Under the pieces are notes generated by a model. That model worked only from the letters and a program-made list of their open reading frames with translations, did not search any database and was not told the origin of the DNA. From IMG/VR virus record IMGVR_UViG_3300030376_006003, positions 32,001 to 96,000 of that record: DNA of 64,000 bases; one strand, given 5' to 3'. The DNA comes from a virus (lineage: Duplodnaviria; Caudoviricetes). Below are positions 2,809-55,880 of this stretch, piece after piece. Positions within the stretch are counted from its first letter, which is position 1. Each line of letters begins with the position of its first letter. A program made the position numbers and the translations under genes.

Positions 2809-5800
2809 TTATTGAGAATTATCACTCTTATCTTCAGTCTGCTCTGCTTTATGAGCATTAGCTGCATCAGTATTAGTTTTTATGTTTGCCCTTAGTCTTC
2901 TATCATATTCATTATATATTTCATCAATAGCAAGTCCTGATGGTGGTAATATTTTTGGTTCTGAGTATGGGCCTTTTACTAAAGATCCTCCATTAACATT
3001 CTTATCATAGTATATTTTAGATTCTTTAACCATCATCTGACCGTTGCTATCTTTAAAAAATATTACTCTTCCTCCTTCATTATCAATAGTTCTTACTTTA
3101 TTGAGATTAATAAAGAATTCTGTTTCTGATACATAAGTATTTTGTACACTATTAGGGTTTTGTGATGCCAGGTCTCTAGGTGCAAAAATTGTTATAGCAT
3201 TACCCGGTAGAGCACTAGCTGGAACAAGCTTGTTGTTTTTAGTGTCGCTTGATGATTTTTTTGTAGAAGCATAATCACTATTTAAAGTGATAACCCAACC
3301 TCCATGTTTACCTCCTCCTTCTTCACCACCTATAACTTCAGCCCATCTTATGTTTATATTTGGTTCTTTACCTTTACCGAATGACTTAGGGTCTCTCTTA
3401 AGATCTTTAAATATTTCTTTTAGTACAATCATAGCATCTGGATTAGTTACTGCATCATATGAAGCAGATGCATCACCAGCAACTACTGAATAGTTCATTG
3501 AAGGAGTTGTTAATAATTGATTAATTAAAGCTAATTGAGCATTGGCTTTTTCATTTACTTGACCAGTTATATAGTCTGAATCATAAAAATTAAACAATGT
3601 TCCTCCTGCTCCTGTTTGTTGTTGATTTGTTATATAAGATGCAAAGTTAAAGTTCAGTGTACCAGCTGGTGCATTTGCTCCTCCCATCACTTTATTCATC
3701 TTATCTTTTACTTTTACAAATACAGATTGAGCATCATCTTTACCTATAAATTCATCATAGATGTTTTTAAAATGTCTTTTAGCTACAAAGTTAATATCAG
3801 ATTGTCTCCCTGTTTTATCTCCTGGTGCATTGGCAAGCCTATGATCTCCATAAGTACCATTCCAAGGATATATTGCATCAAATAATGCGTCTACATCTTG
3901 AAACCCAAAATTATCAGCTATTTCTTGATATTTATTTTTAACATCATTACCTGCTTGTTCTTTATAAAAAGGTAAGTCATTCATTGCTTCAGTATACCAA
4001 TTTACAAAATCAGTATTCATTTTACCTACTATTGCATCAGGATCTTGAATTACACCTCTAGTGTTAAATAAAGGATATGCTTCCATCATTTTATATTCAA
4101 CAGTATTTATATCTCCTTTAGAAAGCAAGAGATCCACCACATTCCTATATACATCTCTTTGTTTTTCCCAACCTGCTAATAACTTAACAGATTCACCATC
4201 TATCTTTCTTTTATTATTATGTAAAATTTCATAAAGAGCAGGGTTATCTTTTTGTAGACTAGGTCCAGTATCTATACCTTGATAGATAGCATCTACTTTA
4301 TCAAACTGAGCTTTTAATTCTAGTTTATTTTCAGGATTTGTATAATATTCTTTTGCTTCCGCCCATGTCATAAACTCTCCATTAACTTTCATTCCCTCTG
4401 TAGAGTATGTATTATCATCATCACTTAGATCTTGAGCTTTCACCTGATAATATCTTTCAATAGAGTTCCATCTCAAATCTCTTATCTCATTTATTTTATT
4501 GTTTGATGTTGTTGCATTTTCAGCTATAATATCTATTATTTCATCATCATCTGGATAAGAACCTGAAGTTGAATTTGCATCTCCTGCCACTACCTGTTGA
4601 GATCCACCAGCTCCTCCAAATATTTGCTGTTGGTTAGTGTTAGAAGGATTTCCGCCAGTTTCTGCCCAAGGCATTGGTATCAACTGACCATCTTCACCAA
4701 TCATGTAACCTTTCTCAAATGCTGTTTGTATTCTTTTATTAGCAGCTTCTTGCTCTTCCATTCTCTGGTTTAGTATATGCTGATGATTTTGTAATGCAAA
4801 CTTATCAGCTTCAATAGTTCTTTCTGAATTTATGTCTGCATAAAACTTAGCTGCTTCTCTTGTGTCTGCATCAATATTATATTGCATAAAAGCATTTGTA
4901 GCTTTCATACGTAGATCATTAAGATCACCTTTTGATTCTGCTGTAATTACACTATGTTTCTTATCAAAAAGTTTTCTACCATTTGCTAGAGCAATATATT
5001 CATTGTATGCTTGTGCATATTTTTTATGTTCTTCTGATCCTAACACAGGTGTGCCGTGTTTTGCTTTATATGCTTCCCAATTATTTTTTGCTTCTAGTGC
5101 TGATGTTAACTCAGCTTCTTTTTTATCATTTTCTTCACTGTGTTTTACATTATAGTCTGACAACATCTGCTCATAGAATACTCTTTCAGCTGCATCCTTA
5201 CCTCCATACTTTTCTGCATTTTCTTCATAAAACTGCCTAGCTTTAACATAAAACTTAGTTTGATAAAATCTTTGAACTCTAGGATCATCTAGTGTAGTTT
5301 GTAATATGTATTCTTGTGCAGGATTTGTGTAGATGATATTATCATCTTTATCTTTACCCACAGCTCTTCTAGTTAATAAAGTACCATTTCTTTGTGTTAT
5401 CTGATAATGCCCATCTTTAGACATTGATACATCAGTAACATCCATACCTAAATCTTTTAATTTTGCAATACCAATTTCAACAAGATTTACATGTTCTACA
5501 GCTTCTGGTAATTGTACTTGCATTGATCCTTCTCTAGTTGCATTTTGAAAATCTGCCATGCTATAGTTAAGAGCTTGTACACCACCGTCCCAATATTTTT
5601 TTCTAGTTTCTTCATCTTCACTACCCTTCCAACCTTGAAACCTTTGTTGTTCTGTTTTAAATCTTTTAGTAAATACAATATCTCTAACTATTTTTTCATC
5701 TTCAAAGAATGGTGTAAATAATGCCTTTGCAGAATCTACATTTTGTGCTAATGAAAAATCTACACCAGATATTTGCTGCAGTTTTGGAGCAAGTTCTTGA

Positions 5801-6003
5801 GCATATACATCTCTGATGTTCATATTATCTTCTCTGCTTAAATCTGCATGGACAACACTACCATATAGATTATTCATCTTCTTATAGTTAGTATCATATC
5901 TATCTTGCCTTTTTGCTAAGGCATCAGATAAAAACTTAAAGTCAGGAGTAAAGGACTCTGTCTTTGATACATATTTATTTACATTTGGTAGGTACGTTGC
6001 CAT
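2809..6003 (-). CDS. Large virion cargo/ejection protein (1064 aa)
   Basis: Long helical, hydrophilic ORF in the cargo cluster, downstream of the muzzle gene and upstream of the giant ORF. Confidence 0.6.
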   Translation of the reverse strand: MATYLPNVNKYVSKTESFTPDFKFLSDALAKRQDRYDTNYKKMNNLYGSVVHADLSREDNMNIRDVYAQELAPKLQQISGVDFSLAQNVDSAKALFTPFFEDEKIVRDIVFTKRFKTEQQRFQGWKGSEDEETRKKYWDGGVQALNYSMADFQNATREGSMQVQLPEAVEHVNLVEIGIAKLKDLGMDVTDVSMSKDGHYQITQRNGTLLTRRAVGKDKDDNIIYTNPAQEYILQTTLDDPRVQRFYQTKFYVKARQFYEENAEKYGGKDAAERVFYEQMLSDYNVKHSEENDKKEAELTSALEAKNNWEAYKAKHGTPVLGSEEHKKYAQAYNEYIALANGRKLFDKKHSVITAESKGDLNDLRMKATNAFMQYNIDADTREAAKFYADINSERTIEADKFALQNHQHILNQRMEEQEAANKRIQTAFEKGYMIGEDGQLIPMPWAETGGNPSNTNQQQIFGGAGGSQQVVAGDANSTSGSYPDDDEIIDIIAENATTSNNKINEIRDLRWNSIERYYQVKAQDLSDDDNTYSTEGMKVNGEFMTWAEAKEYYTNPENKLELKAQFDKVDAIYQGIDTGPSLQKDNPALYEILHNNKRKIDGESVKLLAGWEKQRDVYRNVVDLLLSKGDINTVEYKMMEAYPLFNTRGVIQDPDAIVGKMNTDFVNWYTEAMNDLPFYKEQAGNDVKNKYQEIADNFGFQDVDALFDAIYPWNGTYGDHRLANAPGDKTGRQSDINFVAKRHFKNIYDEFIGKDDAQSVFVKVKDKMNKVMGGANAPAGTLNFNFASYITNQQQTGAGGTLFNFYDSDYITGQVNEKANAQLALINQLLTTPSMNYSVVAGDASASYDAVTNPDAMIVLKEIFKDLKRDPKSFGKGKEPNINIRWAEVIGGEEGGGKHGGWVITLNSDYASTKKSSSDTKNNKLVPASALPGNAITIFAPRDLASQNPNSVQNTYVSETEFFINLNKVRTIDNEGGRVIFFKDSNGQMMVKESKIYYDKNVNGGSLVKGPYSEPKILPPSGLAIDEIYNEYDRRLRANIKTNTDAANAHKAEQTEDKSDNSQ

Positions 6004-6062: not shown

Positions 6063-9000
6063 TTATGAATAACCTAATATCCATTTTCTTAATTTACTTT
6101 TACTTCTTAAAAGATCTGTTTGTCTTTTTTTCATACGTTTTGTTTCTAATCCATGTCTTGCAGTATCATCTTTATTTTTATCTGAAGGTCTACTAACATC
6201 TACACCACTGCTTGTTCCTGGATCATTTTTCTTTCCGTACATTTTTTCATAGTAGATCTTAGCAAAATCTGGGTTTTGAGCATGTAAATACTCATAGTTA
6301 GCTAACTCTTGATCTAAAGGATTAGTAGATGAAACTTTACCATCAAAATCTCTAGCATTATAATATTCAATATTATGTGCTTGCGGACTATACCAGAACT
6401 GTGGATTTTCTAAGTTTCTTATATATAGTTCATCCGCATTAGTCATTTGATCATTAAAAGCATTTACTAAGTTATCTGTTAGTTCCATTTTTGCTACATT
6501 ATAGTTTTCTTTGGCTGCATTGCTGTCATCCATGTATGTTTTAAAGTTGTTAGCAGCCTGTTCACCAGCCTCATTAATAAGAGGGATGTTAATATTTTGA
6601 GCGTTATTATATATCTTAGTATTAAGAGCTTCATGTTTATTAATAATTTTTTCACTTGCATCTTGCACTGCTCCCATAATTGAACTTGCTTGATCAGGAT
6701 TTGCTCTCATTGCTGCAGCTGCTGATGCTTCTACAGATGCCAGCTCTTGTCTAGGATCCACATACATAGGGTTTACTAACACAGGATCAAGTGTAGGTTC
6801 CATAACTGGATTTATTTGTTCTAGTCCTGCTAATTGTGCAGATTTAGTTGCAACAAGAAGATCATCTTGAGGGAATGTTTCATACTCAGGATACTTAGGT
6901 GTTGTCCAATCTCCTGTTACTGGTGCACAATCACAACTTGCCTGATCAAATCTTTGTCCTTTTTCTAAACACTCTTTCATTTTTTCATTTCTCACTTCTT
7001 CAGGGCAAGGAATGTCTTGATCTATTGTTGTTGTAGATGTATTTGTTTTATTGTCTGCTCTGTAGAATTGTCCACCCGTTGTGTGACCTAACTTTCCATC
7101 TACAAATGATACAGGGTTTCCTTCTGCATCTACCATTTTATTATCACCTACTTTCTCATCAGTCCATGTTTTGTTCTTTTTCATGGCTGCAATATCCTTC
7201 TTGGTATAAACATGATGTCCTCCCATTGGTGTTGTTACAATTTGGTCAAGTAGTCCTGATTCATCTTCTAATTTAGCATTATTTAATGAAGTATACATTC
7301 CTTGGAATATTTTAACTTCCTCTTCAGTAGGTGCTGTATCACCCCAACCATATTTTTTTGCTGCAGCATCATCTGGTGCACCATTAGCATCAAACTTATG
7401 ACCAGCACTATGTGCTGTAGATAAAAATTGATTCATTTTGTTAAAGATCATAAATAACTCAGCGTCACTTTTACCTTGAATCCAATTATTTTTACCATCT
7501 TTATTTTTTGCAGCTGCTTCTCTATATTTTTGTATCCAAAGTTTTCTTGGTGGATCAAAATCTTTACTAGCCATTACATCAAATGCGTCTGCATGAGAAC
7601 TTTGACCAGAGCTAAAATCAGGATTATATGTTTCAAAAGCAGGCTCACTAGATCCAATAATAGGCATTCCATATTCGTCAGTACCTTGATACCCCCAGGC
7701 CTCTGATCCTTGTAACGTAGAGGGATCAAACTCACCTGTATCTTGAAATCTTGGTAGTTCTTTTCCGTATTTTGCTACTGAAGGATTTTGTGGTGCTCCT
7801 TGTGGTGGCATTGATGGATCAGCAAAAGGATCAATTTGTAAACTATCTTGTATCATTTTTGCTTCTATAGATTGAGTTTGTATATCAATCTCATTTAGCT
7901 GTTGTTCCATTACCTGAATAGATGCTTGAATCTCATAAGCTTTTTCAGGATCTTCAAGAATGTTTGGATTCTCAGAAATAAAAGATTTAGTTTGTTCATA
8001 CTCTGTTATTAACTGTTTTCTGTACTTCAATATATTCTGAAGTGCTATCTGTGAATCACTTAACCGTCCTTGTTGTGCTGCTTGGTTTATTGCTAAACTT
8101 CCACCATCAGTAAATTGTTTAAGAGAGTCTGCTTTGAAAGGAGATATTGGTCCTGATCCCAATGACATACTTTCACCATAAGATTTAGGGTTTAATGGTA
8201 TTGATGTGGTCATTCCTGATTTAGGATCATAAATTACCTTGTTTGGATTTATATCTTTTTCATCTGATCTAAATATATTACCTATTCTTGTCCCAATATT
8301 TCCAAGAAAATTTCTATTATTAACTTTTGCAGACTCTTGACAATCACATATAGCTTCATTAAATTGTAACCCTTTAGTAACACATTCTTTCATTTTTTCT
8401 CGTGCATTAGGACACTCAATTCCTGGACCTGATTCTGCTGCCATTATTTCTCCTTTAATTTGGTACCCTGGTAATCCAAGAGGATTTTGATCTCTTACAT
8501 ATCCTTCAGGAACTCCCATTTTAGGGACCATTGGTTGACCAGTCATAGGGGATGTTTCCGCACCATATTGAGCTCCAGGTCTAAAAAGAGCTGTTGGTCT
8601 TGGTGGATTATTCAATACATTATCTCTCCAACTAGGAGAACCTGGTATTTGAGACTCGTCAACTAATTCTGGTATTATTTGCTCTAATGAAGGATTTGGT
8701 TGCTCTTTTCTTTTTTCATGCTCTATTTCTCCTTTAGTTTGATAACTTGGTAACTCAATACCATGTTGAGCTCCAGCAAACATTTTACCCATGCTCATCA
8801 TATTACCTACATCTTCTTTTAGCTTTTCATCTTTGTTTTTCATGAAAGGGTTTGCATATTTTAATCCTGCCATACCAAACATTGCTTGTGGTAACTCAGT
8901 ACCATATTTACCCATTGGAGGCATACCTCCTTGCGGTGGTCCTGTAAATTCTTGCAGTCCCCCTTGATTTTGCATAGCCATATATTCTTCATGCGTTGCT

Positions 9001-9641
9001 CCAGGATGAACTGTACCATCAGGCATAGTATGTGTTGGTCCTTGTTGATTGTTTTGTTCTTGTATTTTAGCTTCTAACTCCTGTGGATTAACACCACTTT
9101 CTATAAGAAAAGGATAAGCTGCTAATGGTAATCCATCAGAGAAATTCTTCTTACTCTCTTGTATAAATGCAAGTTGAGATAACTTGATCTTATTTTTGTT
9201 AATCATATCTTCAGCAGTTGCTATAGATATTTTGTCTGAAGTCTCATCTTCTATTATTTCAATATACTTATTTAAAGGGAAATTTTTAGATGCTTTTGCA
9301 GGAGTCATCTTCTTCTTAGATGTTATACCTAATAATTTAAGCTCATCTAAAGTAAGATTCATTTTTCTTGTATCAGAGTATATAAAACTTTGTTCAGGTA
9401 AATTTAAAGGAGTACCGCCATTACTGTGTCTATTACCTCCTATATTATATAGCTCAAATGAACCATCATTAGTAAGATCAGTTAATGCTGTCTCACCTTT
9501 TTCTGCTTCTAGATTAGCTTCATCTCTATTCATTGGTCCTAATGTATTATTTATAGCACCTCCTGCTTTCATTGTTTTTACAATAGTACCATTTACATAT
9601 TTAAAACCTTCTGGTAACTTTCCGTTTATTTTTATTTTCAT
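6063..9641 (-). CDS. Virion cargo protein (1192 aa) with repeated di-glycine-type motifs, an HTMPDG motif and two Cys-rich repeats
   Basis: N-terminal domain with EAEKGE...GNRHSNGG, low-complexity Q/P/G/M linkers, eight motif copies; located in the cargo cluster. Confidence 0.6.
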   Translation of the reverse strand: MKIKINGKLPEGFKYVNGTIVKTMKAGGAINNTLGPMNRDEANLEAEKGETALTDLTNDGSFELYNIGGNRHSNGGTPLNLPEQSFIYSDTRKMNLTLDELKLLGITSKKKMTPAKASKNFPLNKYIEIIEDETSDKISIATAEDMINKNKIKLSQLAFIQESKKNFSDGLPLAAYPFLIESGVNPQELEAKIQEQNNQQGPTHTMPDGTVHPGATHEEYMAMQNQGGLQEFTGPPQGGMPPMGKYGTELPQAMFGMAGLKYANPFMKNKDEKLKEDVGNMMSMGKMFAGAQHGIELPSYQTKGEIEHEKRKEQPNPSLEQIIPELVDESQIPGSPSWRDNVLNNPPRPTALFRPGAQYGAETSPMTGQPMVPKMGVPEGYVRDQNPLGLPGYQIKGEIMAAESGPGIECPNAREKMKECVTKGLQFNEAICDCQESAKVNNRNFLGNIGTRIGNIFRSDEKDINPNKVIYDPKSGMTTSIPLNPKSYGESMSLGSGPISPFKADSLKQFTDGGSLAINQAAQQGRLSDSQIALQNILKYRKQLITEYEQTKSFISENPNILEDPEKAYEIQASIQVMEQQLNEIDIQTQSIEAKMIQDSLQIDPFADPSMPPQGAPQNPSVAKYGKELPRFQDTGEFDPSTLQGSEAWGYQGTDEYGMPIIGSSEPAFETYNPDFSSGQSSHADAFDVMASKDFDPPRKLWIQKYREAAAKNKDGKNNWIQGKSDAELFMIFNKMNQFLSTAHSAGHKFDANGAPDDAAAKKYGWGDTAPTEEEVKIFQGMYTSLNNAKLEDESGLLDQIVTTPMGGHHVYTKKDIAAMKKNKTWTDEKVGDNKMVDAEGNPVSFVDGKLGHTTGGQFYRADNKTNTSTTTIDQDIPCPEEVRNEKMKECLEKGQRFDQASCDCAPVTGDWTTPKYPEYETFPQDDLLVATKSAQLAGLEQINPVMEPTLDPVLVNPMYVDPRQELASVEASAAAAMRANPDQASSIMGAVQDASEKIINKHEALNTKIYNNAQNINIPLINEAGEQAANNFKTYMDDSNAAKENYNVAKMELTDNLVNAFNDQMTNADELYIRNLENPQFWYSPQAHNIEYYNARDFDGKVSSTNPLDQELANYEYLHAQNPDFAKIYYEKMYGKKNDPGTSSGVDVSRPSDKNKDDTARHGLETKRMKKRQTDLLRSKSKLRKWILGYS

Positions 9642-9645
9642 AATA

Positions 9646-12600
9646 TCAACCTGTTATTTGTATATTAGCTCCTGCCTTCATTAACTCATAATATAAATCC
9701 ATATCTATTTCAGCTTCTTGTTCTCCTCCATACTTAGCAGTAGTTCCAACTTTTTTAGTACTACTCATATTTTCTGTAACTAGAGGTGCTTTCTTATCTG
9801 TAACAGCATCTGCAACTTGTGTACCAACACTTTTAGTAGTATCCATAACACCAGCATATCCTGCTGTATCTTTTGCTAATGAAGTAGTTGCTGATGCTAA
9901 ACCATATCCAGGTATTGCAGATGTTGCATTTAATACAGCATTTTCTGTATGTACTTTTCTTTGTTCTGATCCTTCTGGTGCTGCATATGCTCTAGTTCCA
10001 GATATAGCTGAATTAAGAAGATCTGCTCCTGCTGCAATAGGTCCTGAATAATCTTGCATGCCTGCTACAGTTAACCCTGTCTGTGTATAATCTAAAGCTT
10101 TATTAACTGATTCATTTTCAGAAATAGTTTTTTTAGTAGATTCTCCTTTATAGTCAGGAATAAATCCTTGCTCTCCTTTTAACCATCCTTTTAAATTCCA
10201 ATTACCTCCATCATTCATTGTTGGTAATTGACCTCCCCATTTCATACCTGGACATGTTCCTGGTATTGCACATTCTGGTCCTGTTCCTTTTCCATCAGGA
10301 TCATCATAAGGTAAAACTGGAGCACTATAATCTGCTTTAGAGTTTTCTTCATTTGTTGGTCCTACAGGTCTATCGTATGCGTCACATAAAACAGCTCCTT
10401 CTGATCCTGTGTTTCCTCCTCTTAGAAATTTACGTAACTCACCACCTTTTGTATATATACCATAGTCTATAGAATCTTTTGTTTTAAGATATATATCATC
10501 TTCACTTTTATAACCAGTCTTTATTTTTCCGTCTCTAAGATCTTTTTCATACAAGAGTACATCATCATAACCAGCCTCTGTTGCTGCCTTTTTTAAGAGT
10601 TCCTTCTTTTTTGCTTCTTCATTCCTTAAACCATCTGTACTAGATAATCCCCAGTAAGTTAATGCTCCTAGTGTCAGGGGAATTCCTGCGTATTGTAATT
10701 TATTATGTTTTTTTCCATCTCCTATACGTAGACCAGGTCCACTGAATCCGCTTTTAATACCTCTCCATGTTGGAGAATGAATATCCCAATCACCTCCTAC
10801 TCTATCAATTGTGTAATTAAATATGCTTGAATTTTCTTTACCTAATTCTGTATAAAATCTATTTGTTTCATCAACCTTCTCTCTTCCTATTGCATTTAAA
10901 CCTCTTAGTTTAACTCTAGTATTAAAGTTATAATCTGGTTCAAGTATAGATTCAGGTTTAAAGTCTGGATCATTTTTAAACTTATTGGTTCTTAAACCAC
11001 CTTCATTTACATCAAAGTCATAATGTTTCCATATATTTACAGTAGCTTCAGGATTATCTAATGTTTCTCCACTAATAACCCCTGGATATTTCTCTCCAAA
11101 ACCTCTTGTTGATCTTATAGCTGCATCATATAGAGAAGTACCTATACCTGTCTTTCTATATTCGTCTAACACACTCACCATTTCAACTGAAGAGGGTGCA
11201 TTTCTTTTATTTTTAAGATTTAAAAATCCTATAGTGTTAGATTTATCACTACCTATTGGTGTTTCATTAAAATTTATTTTAGTGAAACTAGGTGTTCTTT
11301 TTGCACTAAATAGTACATTATCTCCATAGTCAAATGCTAAAGGATTAATAGGTCTTAAACCTTCCCAAACATACTTAAAACCATTCCACACCCATTGCCC
11401 ACCTTTTTTAATTTTACCTGGTTGTGTAAGTCCCACCTGAGCTTTTGGTAATTCAGCACCATTTTTCATTTTACCTAAATACGTTTTTTGTTTATCTAGA
11501 TATTCATCTTTATATTTAAGAAAATCAACTTCAGGATTCATATAATTAACTACTCCTGATAGATCTGATTGTTGTTCCATTAATTCTTGACCTTGTTGAG
11601 CTTGACCAAATACTTTACCTGTTCCATATAAGCTATCTCCGTACCCTCCTTTATTTACATCATAGAATCCTTTTGATCCTGTTCCTGCAGTTTCTTCCAT
11701 TACTGGAGCTATATCTTCAGCAGATACAGATCTTTTAAACATTTCATTCTGCTTCTGAACATTTCTGTTATATATATCTTCTAAAAACGGAGCTGCTTTA
11801 TCTACAATAAATTCTGATGCCTTTCCATATATATCTGTTACAGCTCCTACAGCTCCAGTGTTAAAAAACTCTTTACCTTTATTCCAAGTGCTTTGTATAG
11901 GGCCATCACCATAACTAACATCAACACCCATATCTTGAGGATCATTCCAAACTCCTCCATTTCCTTCACACTGCTCTCTAGTTGTTGATACACCATCGCT
12001 ACATGAAAAACCTTTTGCAGCACCTTCCATGTCAGTACGGTTAGCAGGGTCTAATACTCTTGGGTTATTAGCATGTGCTTCATTCTTTTCTGCTATACTA
12101 GCATCAAACTCAGCATTATTATCATAGTCAGGACCTGGATCTTTATTTAAATGTGAATCACCTTTAAACCAATTTTTAAGTTTATTTATATTACTTGGTT
12201 CTTCCCAATTAGATTTTGGTTCTGGTTGAAGATCTATTTCTTTATTAGGGTCACCAAAAGATCCTGGTTGTGCCCAAGGCATATTCATAGCAGAAGTAGG
12301 ATCATTATACTCCTTATTAAAATTAGCTACAGGATTATCAAAATACATCTCTGATTGTGATGGAGGTAATTGTAATAAAGATTCTTTGTACATTCTTTCT
12401 TCTTTCTCATCAATAGTTTCTTCAGTTTCTTCACCATCTTGAAATTTACGCAGTGCTCCACCGTATCTATAATCAGTTTTAAAATTATTTTCAAATACAT
12501 CAAAGTTAGTTTCAAAGTCAGCAGTACGTCCACCTGATGCTTGATCATCTTGAGTAGCTCCTCCTCCTACTTGAAATCTTCTGAGCTCTCTACCATATCT

Positions 12601-13797
12601 AGCATCATCCTCTGATTTTTCTTTAGCCTCTCTATTTATTCTTTGTTGTTCTGTTTCTCCTTCAGTAACTATTGTTTCTGAATGCGGTCCATATATTTTA
12701 TCAGGATCATATTTATTCTGCTGAAGTTGTACATTAGTTGTTGGAGTACCTTCTGTCCAAACTGCACTATTAGCCTCACATTGTTCTCTTGTTGTAGATG
12801 TACCATCAGAACAAGAACTTGTAGTTTCTGTTACCTCATCAAAAGATGTAAATCCTGCTAATTTATTGTCTCCTTCTTTGTCAAAATCAAACAGCATTGT
12901 CTGAGCATTAACATCTCCAAGACCACCTTCACCTTTACCTTCCTCTATTATATCATACTGAGTTTGTGTTGACTTATCATAATCTACAGTACCATCTTCA
13001 TTGAAATAAGTATATGTACCATCTTCATTTTTTGTCTTTATACCAAATAAAGCATCTCCGGTCCAAACACCTCCGTTAGCTTCACAGTCAGCTCCGTTAG
13101 TATATTGAGGATCTGAACAACTTCCTTGATCAGGATTCCTATAATGCTCACTTCTTTTCTGACTAACTCTATAGTTAACACCATCAAACTTAGCTGTACC
13201 ATCTTCATTACGGTCCATCCAATTCCATTTACCGTGTGTTAACTCATCAGGTGTCCACCATAAATCTGAATTCCTCATGTCTCCTGATTCTATAAGCCTC
13301 TTTCTTTCTTTATTACTCATTCCAAGATACTTGGCAAAATTTTCTCCGTGTAATAAAGCATTCTCATCTCTAGTGTTTGTTAAATTTACTCTACCGTATT
13401 TCAATGCACCATCAGCATCAAACTTGGAATACTTACCTCCTGGAGTATAGTTATCTTTATCAAAAGCTCCTACAACATTACCAAAAAGATCTCCTGCTCC
13501 TTTAAACATATTCGCCATTAATCCCATAGGACCTAATCCTCCTAAACTATTATACTTGTCTCTGTCTCCTTGATTACCTACATTATTTTTCCACTCTTCT
13601 CTTACTCCATCAAAAGTACGGTCATACTGGTATTTATTGGTTGGTTTGATTTTACGTACAACATCATTAATATTAACTTGACCCGTTTCTTCATATTCAG
13701 GTAAAGTACCTCCACCTTTCATAAAGTGTTGATAACCACCTAAATATGGATAAACGTTAAAAGTTTGTTCTTTTTTCTTTCTCTTCTTTCCTGCCAT
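9646..13797 (-). CDS. Polyvalent virion cargo protein (1383 aa) with a GNAT-like module, Cys micro-repeats and a hydrophobic segment
   Basis: VSVLDEYRKTGIGTSLY matches GNAT motif A; three CSD..C..N..VW repeats; eight di-glycine-type motifs. Confidence 0.6.
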   Translation of the reverse strand: MAGKKRKKKEQTFNVYPYLGGYQHFMKGGGTLPEYEETGQVNINDVVRKIKPTNKYQYDRTFDGVREEWKNNVGNQGDRDKYNSLGGLGPMGLMANMFKGAGDLFGNVVGAFDKDNYTPGGKYSKFDADGALKYGRVNLTNTRDENALLHGENFAKYLGMSNKERKRLIESGDMRNSDLWWTPDELTHGKWNWMDRNEDGTAKFDGVNYRVSQKRSEHYRNPDQGSCSDPQYTNGADCEANGGVWTGDALFGIKTKNEDGTYTYFNEDGTVDYDKSTQTQYDIIEEGKGEGGLGDVNAQTMLFDFDKEGDNKLAGFTSFDEVTETTSSCSDGTSTTREQCEANSAVWTEGTPTTNVQLQQNKYDPDKIYGPHSETIVTEGETEQQRINREAKEKSEDDARYGRELRRFQVGGGATQDDQASGGRTADFETNFDVFENNFKTDYRYGGALRKFQDGEETEETIDEKEERMYKESLLQLPPSQSEMYFDNPVANFNKEYNDPTSAMNMPWAQPGSFGDPNKEIDLQPEPKSNWEEPSNINKLKNWFKGDSHLNKDPGPDYDNNAEFDASIAEKNEAHANNPRVLDPANRTDMEGAAKGFSCSDGVSTTREQCEGNGGVWNDPQDMGVDVSYGDGPIQSTWNKGKEFFNTGAVGAVTDIYGKASEFIVDKAAPFLEDIYNRNVQKQNEMFKRSVSAEDIAPVMEETAGTGSKGFYDVNKGGYGDSLYGTGKVFGQAQQGQELMEQQSDLSGVVNYMNPEVDFLKYKDEYLDKQKTYLGKMKNGAELPKAQVGLTQPGKIKKGGQWVWNGFKYVWEGLRPINPLAFDYGDNVLFSAKRTPSFTKINFNETPIGSDKSNTIGFLNLKNKRNAPSSVEMVSVLDEYRKTGIGTSLYDAAIRSTRGFGEKYPGVISGETLDNPEATVNIWKHYDFDVNEGGLRTNKFKNDPDFKPESILEPDYNFNTRVKLRGLNAIGREKVDETNRFYTELGKENSSIFNYTIDRVGGDWDIHSPTWRGIKSGFSGPGLRIGDGKKHNKLQYAGIPLTLGALTYWGLSSTDGLRNEEAKKKELLKKAATEAGYDDVLLYEKDLRDGKIKTGYKSEDDIYLKTKDSIDYGIYTKGGELRKFLRGGNTGSEGAVLCDAYDRPVGPTNEENSKADYSAPVLPYDDPDGKGTGPECAIPGTCPGMKWGGQLPTMNDGGNWNLKGWLKGEQGFIPDYKGESTKKTISENESVNKALDYTQTGLTVAGMQDYSGPIAAGADLLNSAISGTRAYAAPEGSEQRKVHTENAVLNATSAIPGYGLASATTSLAKDTAGYAGVMDTTKSVGTQVADAVTDKKAPLVTENMSSTKKVGTTAKYGGEQEAEIDMDLYYELMKAGANIQITG

Positions 13798-13825
13798 ACT
13801 ATTGATTCAGTTATAAAGTTACATT

Positions 13826-13835
13826 TATAATATAC
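13826..13835 (-). promoter_or_regulatory. Putative late promoter motif GTATATTATA
   Basis: Intergenic and upstream of the 13797 start; the same motif recurs at six other minus-strand intergenic sites. Confidence 0.5.
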
Positions 13836-13854
13836 TAAAAATCAAGCATATTAT

Positions 13855-16800
13855 CTAATTATTTAATGATTTCATATAATCAAGAACTGTCATTTTGCTA
13901 GCCTTAGCCTCATTATAATAGATGGTATTTAACCTATTATATATACTTTTTAGTTTGTTAAACTTTTTATCTTTATCTAAAATACCATTTACTCTAGTTT
14001 CATATAATAATATTTGGGAAGCTAATGATAAGCCATAATTATTACCATCTGTTTTATTAAACAAGTCTTTACTAACATTAATGTCACTTAAAGGCATACT
14101 TGCTCCACCATACTTCATAGGAGCAACTCTGTCTTTTACTTTTACTTCTGCTTTAGGTTTATTATCTAATAATCCAAAATTTTCCATTTCATTCTTTTCT
14201 GCTTGAGTTATAGTTTCACCTTTATTATATCTTGTTACTATATCTTTCATTCTTGAAAAGAATCTTTTCTGTTCCTGTTTTTGTTTAGTTATATCAACTA
14301 TATCATTATTATCATAATAAATTTTATTATCTTCAATATTTTCTGTTTGAACATTATATTCTATATAAGGTAATTGTACGTCATCATCATATCCTTTTTT
14401 GATTTTATATTTACCTAACATCCCTTCTATACTTTTTTCTGATCCCATCTTAAACTTAGGTAAAAAAGCTCCGTTTTCTAACATGTCTCCTATAACCTCA
14501 TCCTTTACATTAATGGAACCTCCAAACTTATAAGTAGGTATATTTTTAAAAGGTTCTCTTAGATCATGACTCTCCATAAAGAAAGGTGATTTACTTACAT
14601 CTAAATCAGGATTTAAATACCTATTAACCCTTTCTGTATATCCTCCTACAGAAATATCACCTTTGACTGACTCTTTAGAAAACTCACCTTTAGATAACTG
14701 ATCTCTCAGCTCAGGTTGACCTGCTCTATGTAATGCTGCTATTAATTGAAAATCTGAATATTGAGATGAAGCTTCTGGATAACTATGTCTAATTTGAAGA
14801 ATCTCCTGTGGATATACATCTGTAATAAGATATTGCATTAACTTTCTTTGATCATCTTTATTGTTAAGATAATTAGCTTTCCAATCTTGCTCTTCTTTAT
14901 ATCCTAAAACATCTTTACCGTACTTATTTAAATGTTCTATCTTTATTCCAAATCTACCTAATGCATCAGCACTGCTGACATGTGAATAAGCATCATCCAT
15001 ACCACTTTCATACTGTCCTAGGAATGGGTGATTATCTAAATCATATTGTCCTCCTGGTATAGTATTTCCAAACTCATCTAAATCTTTTCCTGTAACATAA
15101 ACTCTTCCTTCAGGTTTTTTATATTTAACTAGACTTCCTGTTTCAAGATGACCTATTGCTGATATTGTAGACCATAATTCATCTTCAGATATATTTTTAA
15201 AAGAATCTTTATACTTCTTTCTAGCCGTAGAGTATTCTACATGCTTATCAAAATCTGGACCACCTACTAATATTTGATCCCCTACCCACATTCTATTAAT
15301 ATTTTTTGCATAATTAGGTTGATCTTTAATATCAGAAAAATTACTATTTACAGAATTTAAAATACCTTGCTCATTCCACAAGTTATATTTTTCACTAATA
15401 TCTGACTTAGTGTCACCAGATTTAACTTTATATCTGTAATATGTTTTACCATTAATGGTTACTTCTTCTGTATCAGAATAATCTACAGCTCCTCCATTTT
15501 CATAGGCTTTGATTTGTCCACCAAGCTGAAAAGCTTTTATTGGACCACTTCCTATTTTATAGTCATGTGGTATTTCAAATTCATACCAGATATTACCTTG
15601 GTCATCACGGATCTCTTTATAATTATACTCTTTACCAAAAGTACCCTTCATTAATTTATTAAACTCTTTTTCTGTATACTTCTTTAATATTGTTTGATAA
15701 CTTTTACCGTATGAACTTATATCAAAAGGTTTTTTCTCATAAGGTTTTTCAATATGTTTAATTTCTCTTATATCATTTATATACTTCTTAGTATTAGGAT
15801 CATTATGTTCTCCAATAAATTTCCAAGAACCATCGTCTTGTATATGATATGTACCAGCTTGTAAATTTTTTGCAGTCTCTACTGGTATTTCCAAATGCTC
15901 CATTGTTTCATCATCCCCAGTTCTAACACTAGAGCGTGTATTTATAGTATACCTACCATCATTATCAAGAGCTATGTGATTATTTTTCCAGTGACCTATG
16001 TTTGCCGTATAAGCATCTATTTCTGCATCACTCCATCCACTTTTATAAAGTGATTCTCTATATGATGCATCATCTGCATAAACATCCCTCCTAGGCTTTG
16101 TTGTCTTTTTTGGAGCCCAGCCTTTTTCTTCATGTGTTATTCTTGGACTGTTATCCAGAGAGTATACTGAATTAACTTCTTTAGGTATACTTACAAAAGG
16201 ACCATGTCTTTTGGCTACTGTAGTATGACCATAAGTATTACCTGTATTCATACTATTTATTGCTTTTTCATATTCAGCAATATTTTCTAATGTCCATGGA
16301 TTTTCAAGTCTATCTGCCAATGATGCCTGACCGCCACCAAATCCTTCAATAGTTGCTACAGTACTAGCATGTGGAAATCTTACAGTTTGATAATTATTAT
16401 CTAATGCGTATCCAATAGTCTCTGAAAATAATCTTCTAGAATGATTTTTTTCTAAATTTTTTAATTGTGCAGTTTGAACATCACTTCTACTTTGTAGTAA
16501 GGCTTGAATTTTATCTCTATTAGATTCTGCATCTTTTAAACTACTTTTAAGATATTTTATTTCTTCTCTTGCTTGTGAAGTATAATTTTGCCATTGTTGG
16601 TTATCAGGCATTATACTATTTTGATCAGGTACAAAATTATCTATTTTATATTGTTTTGCATCTATTTTATTTTGAGCTTCAATAACATATTCATTAGATT
16701 TTTTAAGTTTAGCTAACAGAGGTCTTTGAAATTCATCTGATTGTATTTCCAGTATGTTAAAAGTTTTTCCATCTATAGAGAAAAATCTTGTATGTCCATA

Positions 16801-17706
16801 AGTTGGTCCAAGATCTTGTGTAGGAAAATGATTATCAGATACTGGATTACCTATTTTATCATTTTGCCAAAGTATTGTTTTGTTTTGAATACTATTATAT
16901 GCAAGTTCTGCTGCATCATATTCTTCTTGTGAAGGAGCAAGAGTACCACTCAGTTCATTTCTTTTATCAAAACCTAATTCTTTCATTCCTACATCAGCAT
17001 ACTTATCTACTTGTTTAGGAGTAAACTGAATTAAATTATTTTGAACTTGTTCTTCAAAAACTTTATAAGGTATTTTATACTTGTTTACATCGTCTACATT
17101 AGCAGGCACTGTTGCTATTACATCATCTATTGATTTTTTTAATACTGCTTTATCTGCTAAATTATCTACGTTATTTGAGAATTGTATTAAAGTATTAATA
17201 TTAACATTTCCACGCTTGTCAGTATTACGTAATATGCTGTTATCTCCCATTAAGGAGTTTATTTGTAATCCTCCTTTATTTTGTATACCATGTTTATTTA
17301 TATACCAATCCCATTCTTCAAAAGTTTTTGGTCTAACGCTAAGATCTGGCACGTTAAAAAGGTTTGGTTTATCTAAAATAGATGGAGGAGGAGTTCCAAA
17401 TATACTTGGAAATGTATTTTGTCCCCAATTTATAATTGGTCTTATTACATTTTTAGCATCTTTTACTTTTCTTACTTTATCAACTCCACCAAGCATTTGA
17501 TACTTGGGTAAAGGTATCTCATATACATCATTACCTGGAAACTTATATTCACCACCTGGCATCATTATCTGTTGGTTACCTTCATCGTCTATACCCAAAA
17601 CAGGATAATTAACTCCTTTCATAGTTATATTTCCATCTGCATCTGGAATTAAAGTATTTTTCCCAGGATGAGCCCACTGTCCATTTTTGTCTTTTATAAA
17701 TGTCAT
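13855..17706 (-). CDS. Polyvalent virion cargo protein (1283 aa) with a LysM domain and a lysozyme/transglycosylase-like domain
   Basis: YKVKSGDTKSDISEKY...INRMWVGDQIL is LysM-like. It is followed by AIGHLETG...SADALGRFGI, resembling the lysozyme-fold catalytic Glu and the AxGxxQ-like motif. An HTR...EIQSD motif lies in the N-terminal half. Confidence 0.65.
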   Translation of the reverse strand: MTFIKDKNGQWAHPGKNTLIPDADGNITMKGVNYPVLGIDDEGNQQIMMPGGEYKFPGNDVYEIPLPKYQMLGGVDKVRKVKDAKNVIRPIINWGQNTFPSIFGTPPPSILDKPNLFNVPDLSVRPKTFEEWDWYINKHGIQNKGGLQINSLMGDNSILRNTDKRGNVNINTLIQFSNNVDNLADKAVLKKSIDDVIATVPANVDDVNKYKIPYKVFEEQVQNNLIQFTPKQVDKYADVGMKELGFDKRNELSGTLAPSQEEYDAAELAYNSIQNKTILWQNDKIGNPVSDNHFPTQDLGPTYGHTRFFSIDGKTFNILEIQSDEFQRPLLAKLKKSNEYVIEAQNKIDAKQYKIDNFVPDQNSIMPDNQQWQNYTSQAREEIKYLKSSLKDAESNRDKIQALLQSRSDVQTAQLKNLEKNHSRRLFSETIGYALDNNYQTVRFPHASTVATIEGFGGGQASLADRLENPWTLENIAEYEKAINSMNTGNTYGHTTVAKRHGPFVSIPKEVNSVYSLDNSPRITHEEKGWAPKKTTKPRRDVYADDASYRESLYKSGWSDAEIDAYTANIGHWKNNHIALDNDGRYTINTRSSVRTGDDETMEHLEIPVETAKNLQAGTYHIQDDGSWKFIGEHNDPNTKKYINDIREIKHIEKPYEKKPFDISSYGKSYQTILKKYTEKEFNKLMKGTFGKEYNYKEIRDDQGNIWYEFEIPHDYKIGSGPIKAFQLGGQIKAYENGGAVDYSDTEEVTINGKTYYRYKVKSGDTKSDISEKYNLWNEQGILNSVNSNFSDIKDQPNYAKNINRMWVGDQILVGGPDFDKHVEYSTARKKYKDSFKNISEDELWSTISAIGHLETGSLVKYKKPEGRVYVTGKDLDEFGNTIPGGQYDLDNHPFLGQYESGMDDAYSHVSSADALGRFGIKIEHLNKYGKDVLGYKEEQDWKANYLNNKDDQRKLMQYLITDVYPQEILQIRHSYPEASSQYSDFQLIAALHRAGQPELRDQLSKGEFSKESVKGDISVGGYTERVNRYLNPDLDVSKSPFFMESHDLREPFKNIPTYKFGGSINVKDEVIGDMLENGAFLPKFKMGSEKSIEGMLGKYKIKKGYDDDVQLPYIEYNVQTENIEDNKIYYDNNDIVDITKQKQEQKRFFSRMKDIVTRYNKGETITQAEKNEMENFGLLDNKPKAEVKVKDRVAPMKYGGASMPLSDINVSKDLFNKTDGNNYGLSLASQILLYETRVNGILDKDKKFNKLKSIYNRLNTIYYNEAKASKMTVLDYMKSLNN

Positions 17707-20700
17707 TATCTACTTGATGCGTTTAGTTTTGTATTATTTAATCTTAATAACATCTTCTTATCTCCTGAAACTAATCTTCTTAGTACAACATGATTATAAT
17801 AGTGTCTAAACTTCTTTCTTTCAAATGAAGATTTCAAAAGATTTATATTAGCCATATTTAAATCTCTTATATAACCATTTAATCTTGTTAGGTATATAGT
17901 ATTTTCTACTCCTGTAAATTCTCCTCTATCATTAGTAACATCCCAGAATTGGTTGAATCTATATTTCTGTTCTTCCTTACTGTATAATATATTTATATCA
18001 TTAGCATTGATTATAGGATAAGTAGTTATTAAAGGTGCATTATTTTTTGGAGATAAATCTAGTTTTAATAAACCGGATGTCTGTTCTGAATTATAAATCT
18101 CTGCTTCATCAAAGTTAAAATCTAATACATGGAATCTATCTCTACTGTCATTTTTATATACAAATGATTCTAATGAATATTCAACGCTTCTAAGAGTAGT
18201 TACTGTTTGACCTGAAGTTTCAAGTAAGTCAATTTCCCAAGGATAATCTACATCATAGAAATTAGCAAACTTATCTGTTCTTGCATTATGTCTCCATATT
18301 CCAGCTATATCATAATTAGGTGGTATACTATCTGAAAAGTCATAGTTGCATATTAAAGGATTACTTTGATCATTACATACTCCAGTTTCCCAATTCATGT
18401 TTGTACCATACCCTGGAGTACCTTCACAACTACATATTTGTCTTTCACAGGTAGGCCATAGGCCGGCACCACATGTACCAACTAATGAATAAGGAGGAGA
18501 AGCTGTTGGACATTCACAATCTCCCTTAATACATAGAGGTGTTTCAGTTTCACTACAATTACCAACTTTTTGATATGTATTATCAGGACATTCACATACT
18601 ATTGGTGGAGTACATGATTGAGCTACTATTACATCAGCTATATCCTGTGCATCTTGAGGATCATCAAATGTAGCTTGATAAGTATTAACACCTTCACCAT
18701 TACTTGGATTATAATTAGGTCCTGTACTGTCGTAATTTGCTCCATAATCTAACAGCTGTTGTGTAGTAGGACTACCGCTTGGATCTAAAATTACAGAATA
18801 TACTTCTAAATCAGAGTAAGCAGGATTATTAAGAACATTATTTATAAACCACTGTTCATTAGATCCAATTGTCCAGGATCCTAAACCTCCTTCATTTAAG
18901 GTTACAGTTGGCGTTACTACATCTAGGTCTGCTGGAGTCCATCCAAATGGTAAATCAGTATTAGAATTAAAGGTTTGATCAAAACCAGGACCAGCACAGT
19001 GACCATCAGCACCATCAGCTGCAAGAAATAGTTTCTTAGGTACACCTGGTCTTGAATTTGGTCCATATAATATAGCTAATGCATGCCAAAGACCACCAAC
19101 CGTATCTGTACCACAAGGTGTATCTGGTGTGTAACCAGGGTCATATGTATTTGCTCCAGTACCAATATGATAACCTGTTCCAGCAACAGTGCCATTACCT
19201 GGTGCATGAGGACCTGTATTATTTATACGGTCTGTCAACTCTTGTTCAACACTTGTTAAATCTTGAAGTTCGTTATCATTAAAACCAGTAAATGAACCTC
19301 CACCATTTTGTAGACCACCACCAAATCTTACAAATCCCATCCTGGTATTACCAAGAGCAAGTGAAGCTGAGAAACTGTTTACTATACCTGTACCAAAGGC
19401 TCTCATATTATCTACATTATCATTATTAGCCACACTGTTTGATGCATCTAAACATAGTACAGCATCAAATTCACATTGAACAGCACCGGTATAGCTATTA
19501 CTTGCACTAATTGAAACAGAGGTATTAGTTGCTACTATTATATCATCAATAAGGTTTGCTGGTTGAGAACCTACAGCACTTATCTCACACATATCTGTAA
19601 CTCCATTGTATGTATATCCTGGAGGACATATTGGTGTTGCTGATATACTTTTCTTAGTTGTTAAGAAATGATTTATACTATTAAATGCTAGTTCAGGATG
19701 CCAGTCATGGAATGAGATCCAAGCTTTAGCTTTAGGATCAAAACTAACTGTCCAAGAAATATCCTCAAAATAATCTGTGTCAGTTAAATCAACTGGTACC
19801 ACAGTCCATCCATCATTATATTGAAACTGCCCATTTTGATAAGACATATCAGCAGCTTTACTTGCAAGTGGTTTATAATCTCTTTTTGAGAAATATACAA
19901 TATCATTATTAGGATCATATATTGCTTGTACTCCTGCACCAATTACAGGATTGTCTACATATCTTGGATGTTCTTCTATTTCTGGAAAAGCTTTTAATAA
20001 TTGAGATGGTAGATATTTATTGAACCACCACTTCATACCTAGATCAGATATAGCCTCTATACCTTTACCTGAATATTTAAATATTTTACCTTGAGCTTGT
20101 GATACAAAGAACATACCTGCTGGTGTTTGTACAACACTTCTTGAACTCTCACATGATCCATATTCATGAGATACATTAGAGTTTGATACTTGTTGGAAAG
20201 TTTGACTAAATAAACCACCATCACCAATAGTTAATTTATTACCTGACTTAGCCATTTCTATTTGATCTGTTCCTTGAAATAATTGTGGAGATAATGTAGG
20301 GAATAATATTAAAGCTCCTGTTTGATTAGTAGGTACTATTGTATTAACTGTAGATTTAAAGTCTCTAAAATTCTCTGGTAAGAATGTTCTCCAATGGTCT
20401 GATCTTTCATCATTCTTGAATTGTTTTAATGATTTTGTATGAACTCCTACTGAAGGTAATGAGTATAATAATCTTTTAGGGTATTTAGTAAAGCAAGTTT
20501 CTGAAACTATTGGATCATACCATCTAGGTTGTATATTACCAAATGATGCTGTCCAGAATCTACGTATATTAAGAGACTGATCATATTTATAGAAGTTATC
20601 TCCTGATATATGATCTTTATGGAATAGTTCATGATAATCTGTATATCCTAGATGATCATAATGTTTTTTTCTTTTTACATCTTCCCAATCTCTAAAGCTA

Positions 20701-55701: not shown

Positions 55702-55705
55702 ATAA

Positions 55706-55713
55706 CAAATATA
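55706..55713 (-). promoter_or_regulatory. Bacteroidota-type -7 element TATATTTG
   Basis: Minus strand reads TATATTTG-TTAT-ATG. Confidence 0.5.
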
Positions 55714-55753
55714 CGGAAAAACCAAAACATAGACAAGATAATTAATGTCTAAT

Positions 55754-55880
55754 CCGGGGTACACCCTTTCATACATGGCCCCCACCCATGTCCGTAGGGG
55801 AAAAAGTTGTATGTATGGGGGTGTGGTTGGGTCCTACATTTAAACTCCCCAACAAAATTTTGGACTGGGGTTACCCCCCA
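55754..55880. other. GC-rich divergent junction between the late (minus) and early/middle (plus) modules
   Basis: G- and C-runs (GGGGTACACCC, GGCCCCCACCC, GGGGGTGTGG, GGGGTTACCCCCC) in an AT-rich genome; the coding strand flips here. Confidence 0.65.

Follow-up and report, generated by a model that had tools for sequence, protein, structure and literature searches.

A 15-residue peptide repeated along the post-muzzle cargo proteins of a crAss-like phage, with a possible role as a binding handle at module junctions

The 64,000-nucleotide window considered here, which corresponds to bases 32001-96000 of a single 128,949 bp phage contig (IMG/VR record IMGVR_UViG_3300030376_006003), encodes on its minus strand three long proteins directly after the muzzle gene, namely P0003 (1283 amino acids (aa), 13855..17706), P0002 (1383 aa, 9646..13797) and P0001 (1192 aa, 6063..9641) in this order, and the three share a 15-residue motif, [MYF]-[KR]-[YN]-G-G-x-L-P-K-[YF]-Q-x-G-G-E, of which they hold 10-11 copies at the level of a sequence profile together with about eight conserved half-copies. 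In the genome Pfam recognises the crassvirus major capsid protein (Crass_capsid), the tail ring proteins 1 and 2 (CrAss_Ring_1/2) and a P22-like portal, and the muzzle itself is a 2553-aa open reading frame (ORF) at 17706..25367, also on the minus strand (Pfam crAss_MUZ). The portal is only 34% identical to that of Leptolyngbya phage Lbo-JY46 and 27% to that of Cellulophaga phage phi17:2, which makes this uncultured marine phage a distant crAss-like one. A Bacteroidota host is indicated by SprB repeats in a 2602-aa protein and by a T9SS sorting domain encoded in another part of the genome.

The three proteins are encoded between the muzzle gene and the virion RNA polymerase (RNAP) block, as is expected of post-muzzle cargo in crassviruses, and their position is that of the cargo proteins gp45/gp46 in PhiCrAss001, ahead of the RNAP-associated giants (PMC10172136). 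These two proteins (C1/C2) are believed to lie packed inside the capsid and the tail barrel and to leave first, building a channel (PMC10172136). P0001-P0003 are likewise large proteins of this place in the gene order, but they are longer than gp45/gp46, bear the motif and contain enzyme cassettes. Synteny and proteomic analyses of PhiCrAss001 and phi14:2 virions lead us to infer that they are probably cargo carried in the particle and injected. Against Pfam at E <= 0.01 they gave only weak GNAT matches and no crAss cargo family, and P0002 had no match by tblastn among the GenBank phages. As to their modules, P0003, the first cargo protein after the muzzle gene, has a transglycosylase-like module at residues 742-833; P0002, the second, has a domain predicted by AlphaFold2 (AF2) at residues 103-394, a weak GNAT-like region at about 850-930 and a Gly-rich C-terminal part; P0001 is the third. 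The original prediction, made from the sequence alone, had read LysM plus lysozyme in P0003 and a GNAT module in P0002. The lysozyme-like part is backed by a PHROG transglycosylase match and by SLT domains (Pfam) in relatives and orthologues, while LysM is unconfirmed by Pfam and the GNAT match stays weak and sub-threshold.

Copies of the motif and their restriction to the cargo genes

Over 150 non-identical instances the percentages per residue are [M45 Y16 F13]-[K55 R25]-[Y38 N24]-G99-G79-x-L90-P84-K69-[Y42 F40 A12]-Q58-x-[G48]-G75-[E30], and the most conserved positions are contiguous (G 99%, G 79%, L 90%, P 84%, K 69%, Y/F 82%). A regular expression for the composite motif finds seven matches, 7/7 of them in P0001-P0003, versus 0.045 expected from shuffles. 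The half-site [AMYF][KRQ]xGx[EASQ] occurs 18 times in these proteins versus 2.2 +/- 1.5 in composition-preserving shuffles (maximum 7, n=500), and 21 times in the remaining proteome of 37,215 aa versus 12.9 +/- 3.5 expected. Circularity was avoided by training the profile on other phages only (46 instances, 22 proteins); with this profile 10 places in the genome reach at least 3 bits, all of them in P0001-P0003, as compared with an average of 0.125 in shuffled proteomes, and the best 11 scores of the genome fall in the same three proteins. By regular expression and profile no motif was found in the other proteins of the 129-kb genome, including capsid, portal, rings 1 and 2, muzzle, a 1064-aa protein and a 5068-aa RNAP giant. 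In fact the motif is real and specific to the post-muzzle cargo proteins, so that its reported absence from capsid, portal, ring and muzzle proteins is confirmed and its frequency stands well above that expected from composition. The early count of about 20 copies needs to be qualified: the listed strings are all present where they were placed (21/21), but only 10-11 are full or profile-level copies, the others being half-sites, three of them doubtful. Besides, an 822-aa protein at 53317-55785 of the window shows two weak N-terminal half-sites (KYKHGGN at residue 30, YKRGGE at residue 60), which are below the trusted threshold.

All copies listed below lie on the minus strand. In P0002 the full copies are MKGGGTLPEYEETGQ (residues 26-40, 13678..13722), preceded by an invariant N-terminal peptide; ARYGRELRRFQVGGG (399-413, 12559..12603), which begins 5 aa past the end of the AF2 folded domain; YRYGGALRKFQDGEE (443-457, 12427..12471), at a similarity breakpoint recurring in relatives; MKNGAELPKAQVGLT (777-791, 11425..11469) and YTKGGELRKFLRGGN (1115-1129, 10411..10455), the left and right borders of the GNAT-like cassette, the latter with a 37-aa insert between its halves in relatives; and MKWGGQLPTMNDGGN (1185-1199, 10201..10245), which has an insert of about 150 aa between the halves in relatives and is a breakpoint in seven of them. 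The half-site AKYGGE (1354-1359, 9721..9738) stands ahead of a conserved C-terminal peptide, its G1357 and E1359 being invariant, and AQQGQE (733-738, 11584..11601) is a doubtful half-site within a strongly conserved block. It was also seen that in many lineages, on different backbones (P0031, P0032, P0038, P0045 and the locus L012), an xFLRGGG copy is followed by EGAVLCDAYD(K/R)P, which lies here at 10350-10410 (P0002 about 1130-1147).

In P0001 the copy GKYGTELPQAMFGMA (244-258, 8868..8912) is an exact in-register hybrid of two copies that flank a 106-aa cassette in the related locus L006, and the full copies AQHGIELPSYQTKGE (291-305, 8727..8771) and AKYGKELPRFQDTGE (623-637, 7731..7775) follow, the second of which is kept in four orthologues. 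Its half-sites are AQYGAE (357-362, 8556..8573), LPGYQIKGE (390-398, 8448..8474), with a full copy aligned there in L012, LKQFTDGGS (507-515, 8097..8123), kept as LR[KM]FTxGG, and ARHGLE (1161-1166, 6144..6161), which is 31 aa from the C-terminus and reads AR[YF]GxE in 2/4 relatives; MKAGGA (24-29, 9555..9572), within a conserved N-terminal domain, is doubtful. The same protein, otherwise Cys-poor, has two Cys-rich elements of the form CP..(R/E).EKMKEC..KG..F....CDC at about 410-435 and 880-905.

In P0003 the half-site LPKYQMLGG (66-74, 17485..17511) corresponds to an aligned full copy in relatives, which have insertions of 150-900 aa just ahead of it, and the full copy FQLGGQIKAYENGGA (726-740, 15487..15531) is placed immediately ahead of the transglycosylase-like module. 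Toward the C-terminus come the half-site YKFGGS (1059-1064, 14515..14532), kept as K[FV]GG[SE], the strongly conserved copy LENGAFLPKFKMGSE (1076-1090, 14437..14481) and the doubtful half-site MKYGGA (1197-1202, 14101..14118), which the orthologues do not keep.

Conservation and distribution of the motif

P0002 has 28 relatives in metagenomes, and in an alignment of 18 sequences with 40-63% identity to it the copies at 26, 399, 777, 1115, 1185 and 1354 are retained within surroundings that are variable or unalignable. More generally, orthologues that are 37-65% identical still have the copies and most half-sites, namely those at 390, 507 and 1161 of P0001, 1354 of P0002, and 66, 1059 and 1076 of P0003, with MKYGGA at P0003 1197 not kept. 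Because AQQGQE (P0002 733) and MKAGGA (P0001 24) are inside conserved blocks, they may be parts of folded regions. Homogenisation of the copies of this genome at the DNA level was considered and rejected: the nine full copies of the window have 99 same-codon pairs versus 95.1 expected from codon usage, so that the repeat is maintained at the protein level. The motif is under purifying selection. Across phages no lineage-specific co-evolution of its flavour was detected (p = 0.23), the flavour being uniform.

As for its distribution, a search of 1.84 billion representative proteins with the profile returned 44 matches at E <= 0.001, about 33 of the 44 being long (440-2400 aa) unannotated proteins with 2-7 copies each and the remainder low-complexity false positives. 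The carriers, which include proteins with SLT, SET and DUF5872 domains, directly follow ring 2, ring 1 and muzzle and precede a giant ORF wherever the flank is long enough to tell, and within the loci of the relatives only two or three post-muzzle proteins score with the profile. A strict DNA pattern of the motif occurs in 5 IMG/VR contigs only, and when a 42-aa motif alignment was used for a word-based search, nothing beyond the close family came up. PhiCrAss001 (including gp45/gp46), phi14:2, phi17:2 and Lbo-JY46 have no copy; tblastn with a 38-aa double motif gave no true match in the GenBank phages, and the profile gave only chance matches to a lipase among PDB sequences. By these searches the motif appears confined to one large clade of uncultured, mostly marine, crAss-like phages, and, no mention of it having been found in the searchable literature, it is seemingly undescribed. 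One related locus (L008:5264-16626) keeps the gene order, the terminal peptides and a P0002 module at 81% identity, yet has almost no motif copies.

The genes which follow P0001 on the minus strand encode the 1064-aa protein (2809..6003), the 5068-aa giant, a 1798-aa protein and a small SET-domain protein. The first of them, between the cargo genes and the RNAP giant, belongs to motif-free proteins of about 1040-1100 aa that start with MATY(L/I)P and are kept in every relative (L004, L006, L008, L012); it is a candidate partner of the cargo or a separate cargo. The giant (G000:C1:19594-34800) has its C-terminal 933 aa at 2..2800 of the window and the rest upstream, and unites in one chain a zincin-like HEAFH (residue 2104) and the RNAP motif DFDID (residue 3799), both outside the window; it has a single cysteine, no Pfam match and no motif copy. 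The SET-domain protein (113 aa; Pfam SET, 31 bits) is encoded by the last gene of the cargo/RNAP operon (G000:C1:13863-14204, that is -18137..-17796 in window numbering, minus strand) and is possibly a lysine methyltransferase that is injected; the motif-bearing cargo P0043 of another phage (L011:5992-9990) has a SET domain fused at its N-terminus. On the plus strand beyond the window (L016/L017) a GroEL-type chaperonin is encoded (Cpn60_TCP1, 1.7e-73), as is one in phi14:2, together with a spore-photoproduct-lyase-like radical SAM protein and a sulfotransferase.

Modules, predicted disorder and cassette exchange

In the AF2 model of P0002 residues 1-780 there is one confident domain, at residues 103-394 (predicted local distance difference test (pLDDT) 60-85), and the segments that hold copies 26, 399, 443 and 777 stay below a pLDDT of 50, by which the copies are predicted to lie in disordered linkers. 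The model of residues 760-1383 is unusable with a mean pLDDT of 38, the means of the two models being 38 and 52, and a Foldseek search of the P0002 model against the PDB found nothing.

The similarity of mosaic relatives breaks frequently at the motif: 19 of 33 local-alignment endpoints are within 3 aa of a copy, versus a coverage of 9.5%. When the endpoints are clustered, 4 of 15 clusters are motif-associated (p = 0.048), and these are recurrent, with 4, 5, 2 and 7 relatives, versus 10 singletons among the 11 other clusters. For example, P0007, P0026 and P0036 lack the GNAT-like cassette that P0002 has between copies 777 and 1115, and in P0031, P0032 and P0045 this cassette is found in a P0001-type backbone; the C-terminal module starting at copy 1185 has 79-81% identity in otherwise divergent proteins; and in relatives an insert separates the halves of copy 1115 and likewise those of copy 1185. 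In L006 the 106-aa cassette is flanked by GKYGTELPSYQ... and QKYGSELPQAMFG..., whose coding DNA is identical at 19/21 nt, and in the window the DNA of one P0001 copy (residues 244-258) equals the left half of the first L006 copy joined to the right half of the second. On the other hand, indels of 15-100 aa in the orthologue alignment show no enrichment at the copies, nor do indels of at least 30 aa in pairwise alignments (13 of 56 boundaries versus 9.6 expected), and the P0001 orthologue at L004:14076-16872 consists of two separate ORFs (167 and 754 aa), divided at a place where the motif is absent. By these comparisons the motif marks some cassette junctions, the recurrent ones, and not every length change. 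The proposal that the copies fall at domain boundaries thus holds for several clear cassettes and for one confidently folded domain, but not for indels in general.

Junctions of this kind are known in polymorphic toxins, where CdiA has VENN and Rhs/Tc proteins have PxxxxDPxGL as junction motifs, the Rhs motif being also cleaved. Here as there a short conserved peptide borders exchangeable modules of a delivered protein and is the point of recombination, and the modules seen are GNAT-like, SLT, SET and DUF5872; the motif differs in that it has no sequence similarity to those motifs, many copies per protein, no toxin/immunity pairs among the modules seen and a phage virion as carrier. The placement of the copies at junctions would follow from recombination at the motif under any functional model. 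The plug-and-play idea of the original prediction gains evolutionary support in this way, because exchangeable cassettes are bounded by the motif (GNAT absent or relocated) and the 106-aa cassette has left an exact recombinant joint.

A possible binding handle and the alternatives to it

By analogy, the motif seems akin to known kinds of signals, that is targeting, docking and processing peptides and junction motifs of the polymorphic-toxin style. As the best explanation, which we hold tentatively and with somewhat less than even confidence, it would be a multivalent binding handle at module junctions. In two or three post-muzzle proteins of ejectosome type, disordered linkers at the termini and between modules would present a short linear peptide for recognition, of about 15 residues with the core G-G-x-L-P-K-[YF]-Q, and each copy would dock in extended form on a conserved partner surface, for which the candidates are the lumen of tail barrel, portal or muzzle, or else a partner met during the formation of a trans-envelope channel. 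Such docking would keep the long bead-on-a-string chains ordered for ejection. Because the same peptide is present at every junction, in-register recombination between the motif-coding stretches could insert or delete entire cassettes (here GNAT-like; in relatives SET, SLT and DUF5872) with the protein unbroken. The sequences show that the motif exists, that it is conserved and specific to these proteins, that it falls in predicted disorder and that cassettes are exchanged at it, while its binding, and to what, is inferred.

Several features are consistent with such a handle. The contiguous conserved core exceeds most protease sites in length and is what one expects of a groove-binding peptide; copies that overlap or are closely spaced with no intervening domain, as GGELPKAQEGGELPTF in P0033, those in P0036 and those at P0002 399 and 443, fit avidity; and the uniform flavour of the motif across phages is expected for a conserved partner. 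In PhiCrAss001 short gp45 segments and an unassigned 14-residue segment are ordered on the portal, ring and muzzle surfaces (PMC10172136). The enrichment in and restriction to the three proteins, the conservation at the protein level amid unalignable flanks, the post-muzzle location, the predicted disorder beside a confident domain, the cassette exchange and the fact that no protease family was detected also suggest a handle. The closest working analogy for docking is given by the encapsulin cargo-loading peptides, which lie in disordered cargo tails and bind the inside of an HK97-fold shell; they have a different consensus, and the motif here has many internal copies and is absent from the RNAP cargo. 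Among other known peptides, the RTX nonapeptide repeats (G-G-x-G-x-D-x-U-x) were rejected, having only the 9-residue G-G spacing in common with the motif, which has no conserved Asp and no arrays, and sortase LPxTG, Tat, prepilin and double-glycine leader signals were rejected on register or missing key residues.

There are also points that weigh against a handle. The RNAP giant and the 1064-aa and 1798-aa proteins, presumably also packaged, are devoid of the motif, and a general packaging tag is therefore impossible, as is a general polyprotein site; the reader of the tag would have to be specific to the first-ejected, channel-forming, effector-carrying proteins. The cultured crassviruses whose virions were solved or analysed by proteomics lack the motif, which makes the precedent only an analogy, and the binding partners named above are candidates. 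Given the poor AF2 models, the disorder is weakly grounded outside residues 1-780. Moreover, a copy per cassette junction and copies about 25-30 aa from both termini are also predicted by polyprotein processing.

Such processing, in which the proteins would be polyproteins cut at or near G-G or after Q so that terminal targeting peptides and modules (GNAT-like) are freed, seems to us rather unlikely but the strongest of the alternatives. The cut would be made during maturation, or post-ejection by a co-packaged zincin-like domain or a host protease. The copies near the N- and C-termini of each protein are beside very conserved terminal peptides and thereby resemble the arrangement in T4, whose internal proteins have a capsid-targeting sequence plus a cleavage site, and the Rhs DPxGL junction motifs are at once recombination borders and cleavage sites. 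The G-G, with LRGG in several copies, also recalls di-glycine protease sites. A candidate protease is the HEAFH domain of the 5068-aa giant, whose counterpart gp65 in phi14:2 was proposed to be a zincin-like protease, the fused giants being proposed to be cleaved (10.1101/2020.03.07.982082). The statement of the original prediction that no protease is recognisable stands for Pfam families in the window and the rest of the genome, but it had missed this candidate in a protein partly in the window.

The protease question speaks rather against processing. A Pfam scan of nearly all ORFs of at least 60 aa, in which remote homologues could be missed, detected no protease family except an M15 peptidase (M15_3), probably a lysin; there was no prohead, clan-CE, C39 or chymotrypsin-like protease, and none of the S77, S78, S49 and ClpP families. 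The zincin-like domain is reported across crAss-like phages (10.1101/2020.03.07.982082), whereas the motif is limited to one clade. No copy marks the presumed internal junctions of the fused RNAP giant, so that the motif cannot be its junction site, and the P0001 orthologue in L004 is split at a motif-free place. In the paper on the PhiCrAss001 structure proteolysis is unmentioned, and one cargo chain was traced from tail barrel to capsid (PMC10172136).

The form of the motif is also hard to fit to the proteases that were compared. In T4 the capsid-targeting sequence is cleaved by gp21, and inner-body proteins of the phiKZ type are processed at S/A/G-x-E. Like these signals the motif is a short peptide on internal or ejected virion proteins, with copies about 25 aa from the N-termini; unlike them it has internal and C-terminal copies, Glu is not conserved at the would-be P1 as in L/I-x-E or S/A/G-x-E, and no gp21-type prohead protease was found. 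Of the 150 instances only 20% have E following G-G, so that the motif is not an x-x-E site of the T4/phiKZ type. The adenovirus protease cuts at (M/I/L)xGG-x and the African swine fever virus (ASFV) protease pS273R at GG-x, and the original prediction had taken these sites as models. The motif shares with them a G-G pair after a hydrophobic residue in virion proteins, but the analogy does not hold: the register is off by one residue, with K/R at P4 in place of a hydrophobic residue and the hydrophobic M/Y/F at P5, the conservation runs 6-9 residues past G-G, and no virus-encoded clan-CE cysteine protease was detected. The strongest conservation is on the L-P-K-[YF] between the G-G pairs, for which a G-G cutter would have no need.

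Still less likely is that the motif has no partner at all and is a junction or hinge, whose flexible G-G and L-P turn would let modules unfold and thread independently and make exchange safe, the benefit being evolvability. The exact in-register recombinant of two motif-coding repeats with 19/21 nt identical, the breakpoints recurring at four copies, the inserts between motif halves and the copies in predicted disorder would all be accommodated. However, K, Y/F and Q are conserved at 58-82% despite unalignable flanks, for which a passive hinge has no need; the codons of the copies within one genome show no excess identity, which points to selection on the peptide; and most indels in the orthologue alignments are away from the motif. 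The least probable alternative, improbable on support that is purely circumstantial (two conserved lysines in the motif, a SET gene closing the cargo operon and SET fused to motif-bearing cargo in another phage, the GNAT-like cassette in P0002, the uniformity of the motif across phages, and the SprB repeats and T9SS sorting domain of a Bacteroidota host), is a lysine modification site for phage SET/GNAT-type enzymes or a peptide binding the host envelope during channel formation in the manner of a colicin translocation domain, and the gut Bacteroides crassviruses do without the motif.

Returning to the binding handle, a broader scheme can be drawn, which we consider doubtful as a whole: throughout the clade, the junctions of the first-ejected proteins would all carry a tag recognised by one conserved partner, either a surface of the virion lumen or a protease packaged with them. 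Any enzyme cassette between tags (GNAT, SET, SLT, DUF5872 and others) could thereby enter the particle, be threaded out and be set free or put in place inside the host, with new ones gained by in-register recombination, which would amount to a modular effector-delivery platform of a podovirus. How podoviruses, notably crassviruses, order megadaltons of internal cargo and expel it through the tail is an open question, and in crassvirus structure so far only fragments of one cargo protein have been seen. A multi-copy peptide specific to cargo offers a concrete handle on the organisation of this cargo, as it lends itself to synthesis, mutation, fusion with a reporter and modelling against the ring, portal and muzzle proteins. 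Should the peptide prove to be a place of cleavage, polyprotein processing would for the first time have been evidenced in this phage order. Furthermore, the motif marks natural sites of cassette exchange, and would thus lead to a catalogue of what abundant marine phages inject.

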